From: Psammoneis japonica
Taxonomy: Eukaryota
DNA length: 64,000 bases
Direction of reading: 5' to 3'
NCBI GenBank assembly: GCA_008632985.1
Contig: QPGO01000147.1
Location: forward strand, 124,001-188,000
Below, in pieces: positions 12,350-15,670 of this stretch (position 1 is the first letter of the stretch; each line of letters opens with the position of its first letter). Under the pieces are notes generated by a model. It had not been told where the DNA came from and did not search any database. It saw only the letters and a list, made by a program, of their open reading frames with translations. The translations under genes were made by a program, and so were the position numbers.

Positions 12350-15300
12350 CTCGGTCTCGACAATGTTGTGATTGTGCTGTCACTGCTGCTCACCTCCATT
12401 GCCTGTGTCATTCACTGTGTTTTGTTCACAACCGCATGGCACCTGGCATGTCAACTGATTTCTTCATTTTCATGAGTGCCTCCAAAAGTCACTCATGCAG
12501 CCTCCCACGCATTGCTGGCAAGCTGCACAGCAGTCACCACCAAGTTGAAGTGGTCTGCTTCCCATCAGCGCATGTGCTGAGGGTGCTTTTTCAACAGAAT
12601 TTCCCATGGCCAAAGCATCGCTGCCAGACACCCTCTCCGTCCATGTGATGAGCCATCAGCTCACACAATCTCAAAACACAACATGATGATGCCAGAGAGC
12701 ACATGCTTTCAGTGGACAACACACGCTGTGCCAGATTTCAACCAGCGTTGGTGGTGGCTGCCAGGAGTTGTGAGTTTCCACTCTGAGCAACAGAAGCTCC
12801 AGATGAAGCAGTCTTGCAAAGCAGAGTTGTTGGCTGGAAATTCATTTTGACAGACTTTCTTCTCATGTCTCCATGATTTTTGCTTTGACAAAAGAAGGTG
12901 ACATGAAATGTGGTGGCACACTCCCACTCGTTGTCATCAAAGGAGGGAGCATTGCTTTCATGCTTGATTTCTTGATTGGCTTTGCAGATCAGCACTTTGC
13001 ACACAAAATCTGAGGGATGTCAGTTGAAGCTGTTGTTTCAATTGGCTCAAAAATCATTTGTCATGATGAAGCAAAATGCTGACCAACATTGATGTGAACC
13101 ATCCAGATCCCAAAATGTGCAGCATCAGAACAGTTTCATTTGCTGCTGCCACATTGAAGCTTGTTGGCCAGGACCAACACAGAACCCATCCAGCATGTGC
13201 CTCCACCAATGACCAAGTGCACGCATGAACCTCTTCCATTTTTTTGCCAAACAGCATGGTTGCTCTTCATCTTGCAAGACACAAAATGTTTCCTTCTTGT
13301 TGGACTTGCTTGTCTTTGGCTTTCTCCAAGTCAAGTTTTTAGCTTCATCTGTCTCCCATTCACAAATGCAACCAAGACTGCTTTTGCTTGTCCAGGTGTG
13401 GGCAAGAGGCTGTTTGTGCACAGGAAGACACCTGGAAGTGGCAAGATGCTCACAGCAATGGGGGGTTGTGCACACAACTTGTCTGAGGCAGAGTTGGTGA
13501 AAACTAACACAACCAATCCAAGCTGGGGCTGTGCCACGTGACAGCACTCCTTGACTTGTTCAAATTGGCAGATGCACCAGAAAATGGACCCTTCTCAGTG
13601 GGCATTTCTCTTTTTGAGATCTGCAATGGAAAGCCACTTGATTTGCAGCATGCCAGGTCAGCCGTCAAGTGTTGGCCCAGCTCCAACAAAAGCTCTCAAC
13701 AAGTGTCTTTCTTGTCAGCCAAGCCTGTTGGCCCAGTGATCATTGCCATGTCATTTTGCAAGTGGCCATTTTTTTTGTGTCCTTTGCCCACATCTCCTGT
13801 TTGTTGTGAGGTTTTTTGTGATTTAAGTTGACCCAAATGAATCTTTTTTCATTGTCAGCATTTGCTGGCTGACATGGGAGCTGTCACATTTGCTGGCTCA
13901 AATCTGAAGCAGCACATCTGTGTTCAACAAAGACTGGTGTCACAGTTTGGTTGTTGTGGAAGTGGTGTGCTCTTGTGGAGAATGAAATTTTCACATTGTT
14001 TGTGGTGGTGGCGGTCCACACAGCTTGCTTGTCATTTGTTTGTGTCTGTGAGACTGTTTTTGCAGCTGTGTTTTTTTAAGAGTTGTTGGAGCCCTCACCG
14101 ACAGAACTGTCAAGCAAAAAAGTCACAGGCTGAGGGTGTTGCAGGTCTTTGGCAAACACAAGGGATCACTTTGAGAGCCATCTCTGAGACTTCAAAGGTC
14201 TTTCTGGTGGTGCAACACTGCAGCCCCACCATGTCACTTTGTCCTCACAAGAAAGACAAAGCTCAAACCTTGCACAGTGAAAGAACACAATGGAGGGGAC
14301 TGGCCAATCCAAGAACAGCAGCCTGTGGGCATTGTGGGGTTTAAAAGCTGTGGATGAGCAATTGCCAGCAGCCTTGTGTGCAGTTGTTGCCCCCCCCCCC
14401 CCCCCCCCCCTCCGTGTTGCTTCACCCCACAAAGAGCAAGACTTGGATGCCCCAGCTCAACACAGCAAAAGAACATGATGGTGGCACCCACCAACATGTT
14501 GAGAACTGTGGTTTTGAAGATTGCAAGGACAAAGGGTGAGACTGGAAAATCCCAACTCAGCTGTCAAAGGACACTGCCATGGTGGGACCAGCCAACCAAA
14601 CGACTGCAGTTTGAGAGCATTGGGGGTCTTTTCAAGACCACATGTGACACTTGGAGATCTGTCGTTGAGGGTTGCAAGGTCACCCTTGTGCAGCTGTGCC
14701 ACTCCAGCAGCTACTCTGCCTCAGAAAGGGCAAAAATTCCAACTCCACAGCAAAAGGACACTGCAAAAGCACCAACCAGCCAACCCAAGAACAGCAGGCT
14801 GAGGGCAATGAAGGTCTTTGATGTGACCCAGGTCACACTTTGAGAGCTGTGGCAGAGAGTTGCAAGGCCAACCCTTGTGCATTTGTGCCCCCTCCTGGAT
14901 GACACACATTGCCCTCACAAAGCACATTCTGACAACCCCAACTCTGCAGTGAACTTGCTCGTTGGTGGCAGTTTTATTTTTCACCCCAATGCCAAGGCTC
15001 AACTCACCACTGAGCCAAGAGCCTTCTCAGCTGTGTGGTGGCGCACTGCTTCACCTTGCCCCAGCCACCCAGCCAGGCCCACCCTGCCCTCCCAAACACT
15101 GCCCTGGTGTGTGCCTTGCACTGCAGTGCATGTTGCTGGAGAGCATCCATGCCACTCCAGGACAAAGTGATGCCAGTTGCCATCCTGGTCATCAAAACAG
15201 AGCCGAGACAAGGAAGGGGAGATGCCTCATTGCCAGCTGAGCTCACAATCCCCTTGCATCCCTCTCATCACCAATTGAATGTGAGCAAGTTGGCAAACCA

Positions 15301-15670
15301 GCACTGCCACTGCTGCTCTCTCTCACTCTTTGGAAAATGTCTTGCTCTTTGGAAGAGGGGGGTGGTGAGTTTCGCTGCAGCAGCGGCAACAAGTCGAGTG
15401 TGAACACCAGGTTAAAAGTGCTCCCTCCTCTCCCTCCCTCTGGTCATGCCATTGCAGCTTGGGAATGGAAAGGGACCAACACGCCAGCAAGTCTTCCCAT
15501 CCCTGTGCAAGCTCAGTTTCCTTGCAATTTCGAGAGACCCAGATCACAGCAAGAGGTCGAACAGTGCGGCAAACACAGTGCGCACTGCGGTCGAACCGCG
15601 GACGGCGGTCATCGGGCATCACGCAACACTGAACACCATGAACCAAGACGATCCGAGATCCGGGACCATG
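12350..15670. mobile_element. TpA-depleted decayed repeat/TE-like block, family not recognised
   Basis: About 8 TpA counted by eye in 3.3 kb, with spurious Cys/His-rich ORFs in all frames. Contains a poly-C run at ~14389-14410. Confidence 0.5.

Follow-up and report, generated by a model that had tools for sequence, protein, structure and literature searches.

A both-strand TpA mutator with a neighbour rule in repeat DNA of the diatom Psammoneis japonica

Introduction

In fungi, repeat-induced point mutation (RIP), a dinucleotide-specific transition hypermutation, is confined to repeats, acts in bounded domains and kills transposons; the adenine base editors (ABE) act mainly on single-stranded DNA (ssDNA). 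In Bigelowiella natans, the main text of a preprint describes hypermutation of the dinucleotide TpA in integrated DNA of nucleocytoplasmic large DNA viruses (NCLDV) as well as virophages, with rates measured per generation that are raised about 1000-fold de novo in some lines only, and ADAT2 is proposed there as the candidate enzyme (Mettrop et al., bioRxiv 10.64898/2026.01.13.699255). Here we analyse a 64,000-bp stretch of the genome of the diatom Psammoneis japonica (contig QPGO01000147.1, positions 124,001-188,000; hereafter the window, with positions counted from its first base), in which a block at 12308..15673 has lost nearly all of its TpA; genome-wide searches covered the 91.4-Mb assembly. 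An earlier reading of the letters (the sequence-only reading) had ascribed this loss to a mutator with an extended sequence preference that spares TpA embedded in A/T tracts, and had seen in it an enzyme or DNA-shape effect rather than neutral drift or GC-biased conversion.

In common with Bigelowiella, as far as the preprint's main text describes it, the changes reported below are nearly only A:T>G:C transitions at TpA that leave TpG or CpA on both strands, and they are confined to local stretches of DNA of foreign or mobile origin, which form TpA-poor, CpA/TpG-rich clusters. The diatom process would therefore appear to work like the TpA hypermutation of Bigelowiella, a likeness drawn from features of the sequence. 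Unlike the rhizarian Bigelowiella, the host here is a diatom, a stramenopile, and whereas the targets there are viral, the erased targets here are Copia transposons, short repeats and redundant gene-like copies, the block 12308..15673 being without Pfam match. The loss is near saturation here, with a relative abundance (rho) of TpA of 0.04 against 0.45 in the NCLDV region of Bigelowiella. A neighbour rule was measured here for each strand, whereas a term search of the main text of the preprint returned no flanking-base analysis, and its Table S2, with 231 de novo mutations, may hold contexts. What is new here is that the extended preference is made precise as a per-strand rule; its general kind is known from the preprint. 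RIP runs the opposite way, as it makes TpA from CpA/TpG whereas here TpA is lost; it is premeiotic, depends on RID/DIM-2 and has sequence duplication for its trigger.

Results

A block nearly devoid of TpA

Hidden Markov model (HMM) segmentation delimited the block at 12308..15673, the nearest flanking TA standing at 12307 and 15674, and its rho values were 0.04 for TpA, 0.21 for CpG, 1.77 for CpA and 1.78 for TpG. Between 12350 and 15670 there are exactly eight TpA, where base composition predicts 208 and the TpA density found in the window's normal domains predicts 143 (Poisson p 3e-50), and the estimate of about eight against roughly 200 in the sequence-only reading was thus accurate. Seven of the eight stand in TTA or TAA compared to 671/1830 TpA in normal domains (binomial p 0.005); every context that had been listed is present, and the eighth is gcTAct. 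CpG is also depleted over these positions (40 against 207 expected), with CpA/TpG in excess at a rho of about 1.77. As no un-erased full copy of the block was found in the genome, by a search that gives lower bounds, the test of sequence context rests on other repeat families.

Mutation spectrum and timing of TpA loss

The spectrum was read from six partly hit copies of a 6.6-kb Copia family whose 20 copies (L127-L146) range from 99% to about 78% identity. In these six, A>G at TpA had occurred at 782/2196 sites with 1 transversion, while A>G at the other NpA was restricted to 0.4-0.9% (ApA 31/3281, CpA 31/4139, GpA 17/4161), a preference for 5' T of about 40-fold or more, and C>T at CpA was seen at 7/4138. 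The second family, F1, presents a graded series from un-erased copies with 44-47 TA/kb down to 0.6 TA/kb, in which CpG stays intact until late. In the columns where three un-erased F1 copies agree, the A of TpA was changed in 108/233 cases (99 to G) against 45/1368 for other A, and the T of TpA in 91/239 (75 to C).

The products TG and CA are roughly equal on one strand (strand ratio 0.86), that is, both strands are hit. Between the paired long terminal repeats (LTRs) of 14 Copia copies, 81 of 163 differences are TA/TG or TA/CA; five copies (L140, L142-L145) without a usable pair were left out. Copies that are 98-99% identical differ at TpA far above background, and where both copies of a pair are mutated they carry the same product at only 42-76% of the sites, pairs with L135 being left out. 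Adjacent hits of the same product numbered 738 against 735.9 expected, and 94 against 87.7 in lightly hit bins, a comparison whose power is lowered by saturation. The hits on both strands, the differences between LTR pairs and the independence of the copies identify a process acting on DNA after insertion, which is neither RNA editing nor GC-biased conversion. These repeats have therefore been hit, copy by copy, by a local DNA-level mutator that turns TpA into TpG/CpA (A:T to G:C) on both strands. With 36% of TpA changed and other A/T sites at 0.4-0.9%, the dismissal of neutral drift and GC-biased conversion in the sequence-only reading holds.

The decay of CpG by 5-methylcytosine affects these blocks too, with TpG/CpA again as its products, but it lags the loss of TpA: in the six Copia copies CpG decay amounted to 88/3226, a per-base loss of 0.027 against 0.356 for TpA, about 13-fold slower. 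At the right edge of the block (15500-15673) TpA is nearly gone and CpG is normal, and the loci L021:1-4500, L022, L013, L015 and L016 likewise have nearly no TpA and normal CpG. As TpA can be gone where CpG is intact, the two losses are separable, and CpG decay is a separate and slower process.

Neighbour rule on each strand

A rate was fitted for the A of each strand with a free dose per copy and 750-bp bin and with bootstrap over sites (60 replicates), using 650 TpA sites, of which 268 belong to the Copia family and 382 were held out from other repeat families. Twelve sites overlapping TATA were dropped (280 to 268 Copia sites), as were L135, which has 18/18 products in common with L138, and four of the six family-E copies, which were not alignable. 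A site counted as ancestral if TA stood in at least two copies, a definition that favours slower sites, and sites were scored in several copies. Scored by flank in these aligned copies, mutated and unmutated TpA sites have rates that differ by neighbour, and the factors agree between the Copia and the held-out sites.

The rate is set chiefly by the base 3' of the A (C, T > G > A), whose combined factors are A 0.50 (0.38-0.58), G 0.73 (0.62-0.82), T 1.57 (1.37-1.80) and C 1.75 (1.58-2.05). Upstream purines raise the rate, namely A at -2 (1.28, the others about 0.9) and A or G at -3 (A 1.48, G 1.21, C 0.86, T 0.65), and the rate drops with T at -3 and with A at +2 (+2 factors A 0.62, G 1.03, T 1.18, C 1.33). 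Strand specificity was confirmed by a dose-free comparison: in dyads with TAY on one strand and TAR on the other (Y, pyrimidine; R, purine), the TAY strand was the mutated one in 111 cases against 15 in Copia and in 119 against 28 at the held-out sites. The fitted hexamer rates extend from 0.39 for TTTAAA, the slowest, to 7.0 for AATATT, the fastest, 18-fold apart. The inner flank pair acts in a strand-specific manner (antisymmetric part 0.72-1.41), whereas the outer pair is near-equal on both strands (0.90-1.09), which suggests a duplex-level term added to a base-flipping or pocket term. The DNA-shape idea of the sequence-only reading thus retains some standing beside that of an enzyme pocket.

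Surviving TpA sites

Since a dyad vanishes if either of its strands is hit, the survivors should be those dyads that are slow on both strands, that is YTAR (TTAA, CTAA/TTAG and CTAG). In old Copia copies, CTAG survived at 4/21 sites, TTAA at 9/49 and CTAA/TTAG at 11/66, against 0/79 for GTAC and 0/83 for ATAT, and in a second set of aligned copies ATAT survived at 0/72 and TTAA at 24/55. Embedding in A/T tracts, which the sequence-only reading had taken as the protection, therefore does not spare TpA. It was half right, in that TTTAAA is the slowest context, and wrong in that AATATT is the fastest and that TTA/TAA outside YTAR is not enriched among the survivors (15/68 against 465/1830 in normal DNA, p 0.67). 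The protection is one of purine/pyrimidine polarity, YY-TA-RR being slow and RR-TA-YY fast.

The better evidence for this is the model-free survival table, which along the RR..YY polarity runs through 0.42, 0.38, 0.12, 0.07 and 0.01 and against A/T count rises weakly, from 0.12 to 0.31. A/T richness or melting as protector was rejected, as the rates of the 256 hexamers, taken from the fitted model, hardly follow nearest-neighbour stability (rho -0.11) or A/T count (-0.16), and TTTAAA and AATATT have like stabilities (-4.6 and -4.3 kcal/mol) with fitted rates 18-fold apart. All six erased blocks of the window together hold 68 survivors, of which 50 stand in TTA or TAA (Fisher p 2e-9 against normal domains). 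The bias that had been noticed in 44700-50500 was found there again (12 of the 17 TpA, p 0.005). These 68 depart strongly from the background NTAN spectrum (chi2 135), in agreement with the extended preference claimed earlier, and lie much closer to the rates derived from the unrelated Copia family (chi2 22.5; Spearman -0.81); a steady-state 1/k model was rejected since its fit to them (chi2 35.5) is poorer than that of exponential decay (22.5). At other TpA- and CpG-poor loci (65 kb), YTAR makes up 90/138 survivors against 746/4444 TpA in normal DNA, and ATAT and ATAC are at 0.

Among the survivors of the six old Copia copies, 67 are ancestral, 29 are new and 6 are ambiguous and were left out of the 96 classifiable ones, which shows that back-mutation alone does not explain them. 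YTAR accounts for 17/29 of the new TAs compared to 27/198 ancestral sites, and the new TAs seem subject to this context filter as well, suggesting that the mutator acted repeatedly and not in a single pulse.

The fitted dyad rates of the eight survivors of the block compare with a normal-DNA median of 2.6. The slowest of all 256 hexamers, TTTAAA (0.39), stands at 14342..14343 and is TG in a paralog; TTTAAG (0.58) stands at 13824..13825 and at 14077..14078, where the paralog alignment is ambiguous beside a gap; GTTAAA (0.78) at 15413..15414, TTTAGC (0.95) at 13340..13341 and TTTATT (1.75), which two paralogs read as TG, at 14975..14976. The two TTAA survivors at 13824 and 15413 are TA in the paralog on contig C335 too. 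The two fastest contexts of the block are ACTAAC at 13505..13506 (1.92), which is CpA in two paralogs and in contigs of the public run X1, and GCTACT at 14712..14713 (3.58), the sole one outside TTA/TAA, which is CpA in a paralog and in X1 contigs; each is either a recent gain or a site under loss.

The block itself is a decayed composite repeat. Its part 13446..15564 is shared, on the minus strand and at 81-89% identity, with the TpA-erased paralog on C335, with 16 aligned sites at which one copy has TG where the other has CA, and this paralog adjoins a Copia reverse transcriptase (RT; RVT_2) remnant. An internal duplication of about 190 bp (14546-14700 and 14733-14889, plus strand, 73%) within 14546..14889 is kin to tandem arrays elsewhere in the genome, and short pieces of the block recur in many dispersed repeats. 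Pfam searches of all six frames, read through stops with X, gave no match for the block and, for the C335 paralog, the neighbouring RVT_2 remnant only. The block is represented in contigs of run X1, including one of 1252 bp with 4 differences; as X1 is possibly the source sample, this coverage argues against an assembly error and nothing more.

Other erased and un-erased segments of the window

The block has sharp edges and sits between ordinary DNA and a mitochondrial-carrier gene, whose open reading frame (ORF) of ordinary TpA content (11513..12253, minus strand; PF00153, E 4e-19) is almost reached by it. By HMM segmentation the six erased blocks amount to 21,577 of the 64,000 bases, about one third of the window, and the flanking genes are spared. 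The window also has a myotubularin ORF, whose organism-named homologs are nearly all from diatoms. The other five lie at 1..2504 (11 TA), 6360..8276 (5 TA, with an erased F1 copy), 31185..32369 (5 TA, CpG less affected), 36667..39098 (7 TA, all TTA/TAA, with an erased F1 copy) and 44412..54584. The last is the largest, a transposon-like nest with 32 TA, 24 of them TTA/TAA. In it, 48268-50225 (minus strand) has weak, below-cutoff Pfam matches to a 3'-5' exonuclease (PF01612) and DUF6729, which suggests a decayed DNA transposon, and a 554-bp element at 46242-46795 with more than 30 genome matches at 85-89% is erased only partly relative to its surroundings and is probably a later insertion.

Two F1 copies on the plus strand are un-erased, one at 27191..28822, which serves as reference, and one at 54675..56330, which is 88% identical to it and begins about 90 bp from the 10-kb erased block. 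Both are gene-like, with ORFs of 313 and 345 aa without Pfam match, and the other copies, in the window and on contig C8, are erased. A second erased F1 copy on C429 (L037) resembles the one in 6360-8276 in aligned ranges and identity and possibly belongs to the other haplotype. That the 88%-identical F1 copy and stretches of Copia copies with 99% identity have escaped erasure argues against duplication as such, the trigger of RIP, being sufficient here. One Copia element has been invaded by a 327-bp element (L067:1078-1404) that is bounded by terminal inverted repeats and has many copies of 93-98% identity. In contigs of a further run, X2, two erased blocks were uncovered and a GT..AG stretch of a flanking gene was skipped; missing cover in X2 is no evidence.

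Discussion

Mechanism and rival explanations

We lean towards chromatin-targeted DNA adenine deamination as the lesion behind this both-strand mutator and its neighbour rule, and regard it as rather probable, though far from assured. An enzyme of the zinc-dependent TadA/ADAT fold, or an analogous one, would flip single adenines out of silent-marked chromatin, one hit each, and deaminate dA to deoxyinosine (dI), and replication would then fix G. All tyrosine codons start with TA and TpA erasure thus removes tyrosines; of the 46 tyrosines in the Copia pol (L127-L146) the oldest copies retain 0-4, the rest having mostly become Cys or His, and the YVDD of RT reads CVDD or HVDD in 12 of the 20 copies, as it reads CVDD in the Copia remnant in L021. 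Such loss, including that of the YxDD tyrosine, would permanently disable transposons and may be a form of defence. Pooled over ten copies, erasure in Copia is strongest in the 5' half of the element, with 83% at 750-1500, and weakest at the 3' end, with 21%, as if it spread from near the promoter; copies with 98-99% identity over their 3' half may have lost almost all TpA in the 5' one.

The TAY preference of TadA/ADAT-fold deamination (5' T, 3' pyrimidine) is found in the repeats of this genome. TadA-derived editors are described as most active at TAY (PMC10879117) and early ones as favouring YAC through contact of Asn108 with the 5' pyrimidine (PMC7056309), so that ABE7.10 and ABE8e resemble the process here in making A>G best at TAY. 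These editors are engineered and Cas9-delivered, whereas the mutator here demands a 5' T almost absolutely and hits both strands without coordination. The genome encodes an ADAT2 with Asn at the 108-equivalent position and a bacterial-type TadA with Asp there, and further deaminases of dCMP, guanine and RibD type as well as two ADAT1/ADAR-type genes. The latter are separate genes, L169 on C40 and L170/L171 on C79, and the C40 protein has ordinary single-domain diatom homologs; in addition, a zinc-dependent deaminase domain and a DIOX_N/2OG-Fe(II) oxygenase are fused in one open frame on C79 (L151, 87318-88790). Diatom transposons are reported to be methylated by DNMT5a (10.1101/2021.06.11.447926). 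In erased bins CpG has decayed 3-fold more than in intact ones (103/1688 against 15/713, over pooled copies), which ties erasure to methylated stretches and is consistent with DNMT5a-type methylation marking the same DNA.

Several points weigh against adenine deamination. No dedicated enzyme was found, the three deaminase-family searches of the genome having returned an ordinary-looking set, and the Asn singles nothing out as the aligned mammalian, yeast and trypanosome ADAT2/Tad2 chains have it as well. Sequence alone cannot distinguish a damaged A from a damaged T paired with it. Strand-coordinated clustering is absent and strand bias is weak, unlike what a deaminase sweeping ssDNA would leave, and the near-symmetric effect of the outer flank suggests that the substrate is duplex DNA, whereas TadA-type editors are mainly known to work on ssDNA. 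For the 68 survivors the decay model leaves a misfit (p 0.0075, with several cells expected <5), with too few CTAG and too many TTAA, and the link to CpG decay pools copies of differing age, other changes being also 2-fold up in erased bins. Fungal Tad2/3 mRNA editing prefers the opposite 3' base, Fusarium A-to-I editing being reported with U/T at -1 in 85.7% and a 3' order of A~G > U > C (PMC4817773), and such editing has been attributed to Tad2-Tad3 (10.1101/2023.10.18.562923). Fungal Tad2-Tad3-Ame1 and animal ADAR resemble the process here in their T/U at -1 but act on RNA and one strand, and their reversed 3' order weakens the simplest ADAT2 proposal, unless DNA alters the preference.

If the damaged base were T instead, a thymine modification on silenced repeats, either 5-hydroxymethyluracil (5hmU) oxidized to 5-formyluracil (5fU) or an O4-alkyl adduct, would pair with G and the rule would read RTA to RCA with a 5' purine favoured. 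Both 5fU and O4-alkyl-T mispair with G, the outcomes in sequence would be identical, and the single, uncoordinated, duplex-type hits would suit such a lesion, as would the dinoflagellate TET/JBP enzymes, which are reported to put 5hmU on repeats mostly at TA and TC (PMC11572971). The matching TpC signal (GpA>G) is however absent (17/4161), and a Tet_JBP search of the genome gave 0 matches, which proves little as it had no positive control; we consider T damage unlikely, if still worth keeping in view. Misinsertion of G opposite T by an error-prone polymerase or repair patch (Pol eta/iota-like) on methylated repeats, with the rule reflecting fidelity and DNA shape, would account for hits on both strands, for erasure that co-locates with CpG decay and with the 2-fold rise of other changes, and for the duplex-symmetric outer-flank effect. 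The WA motif of Pol eta, however, predicts raised ApA>G and transversions, whereas ApA>G lies 38-fold below TpA>G and not above CpA>G, 1 transversion occurs per 782 transitions and the tracts are without strand coordination, which makes this origin improbable.

A methyltransferase that marks A at TpA, the mark being then deaminated or misread, would lend its own preference to the rule, and the strict dinucleotide, the symmetric dyad, the single hits and the domain-wise spread parallel CpG decay. The N6-methyladenine (6mA) of protists is of ApT type, which gives no explanation as TAC is as hot as TAT, and a TpA loss about 13-fold faster than CpG decay is hard to obtain by spontaneous chemistry, so this route seems quite improbable. 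The last group, RNA A-to-I editing (ADAR/ADAT) fixed by reverse transcription and neutral causes (GC-biased conversion, AT-rich ancestors, pure back-mutation), could draw on the two ADAT1/ADAR-type genes, on the new TAs among the old-copy survivors (29/96) and on the 2/8 block survivors that are CA in paralogs and run X1. It is largely refuted by strand symmetry, LTR-pair differences and aligned-site rates, and we give it hardly any weight: TG and CA are about equal on one strand and TpA sites are not the same in the paired LTRs of an element, family F1, without Pfam match, is erased as well, ADAR and fungal editing favour UAG/UAA, which are slow contexts here, conversion fails on the other A/T sites, and new TAs are themselves mostly YTAR.

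Relation to other systems and significance

A literature search, which covered few subscription papers, returned no diatom report and no natural DNA adenine deaminase defence besides the Bigelowiella preprint. Eight metagenome relatives of the Copia family had a rho TpA of 0.37-0.75 in a small scan that favours intact elements; the sole one with partly low TpA (L167) has TAs without YTAR bias. A candidate enzyme should give TAC~TAT > TAG > TAA per strand and a rate for TTTAAA far below that for AATATT, which excludes ADAR-like or fungal Tad2/3-like behaviour.

The process distorts the dating and annotation of repeats, as erased elements lose TAA/TAG stops together with tyrosines and so acquire long false open frames. 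Adenine deamination of DNA by a natural enzyme, if true, would be of interest to genome editing. A second lineage of the stramenopile-alveolate-rhizarian (SAR) group with saturated transposons suggests a wider defence. We offer only tentatively, as a possibility with the odds against it, that diatoms and chlorarachniophytes have in common a hitherto undescribed SAR-wide defence. In it, a natural deaminase of adenine in double-stranded DNA, led to its targets by silent chromatin, with a strict demand for TpA and a preference for RR-TA-YY, would spread from the 5' part of an element and destroy its tyrosine codons; it would be a natural counterpart to the engineered base editors and an A:T mirror of RIP.

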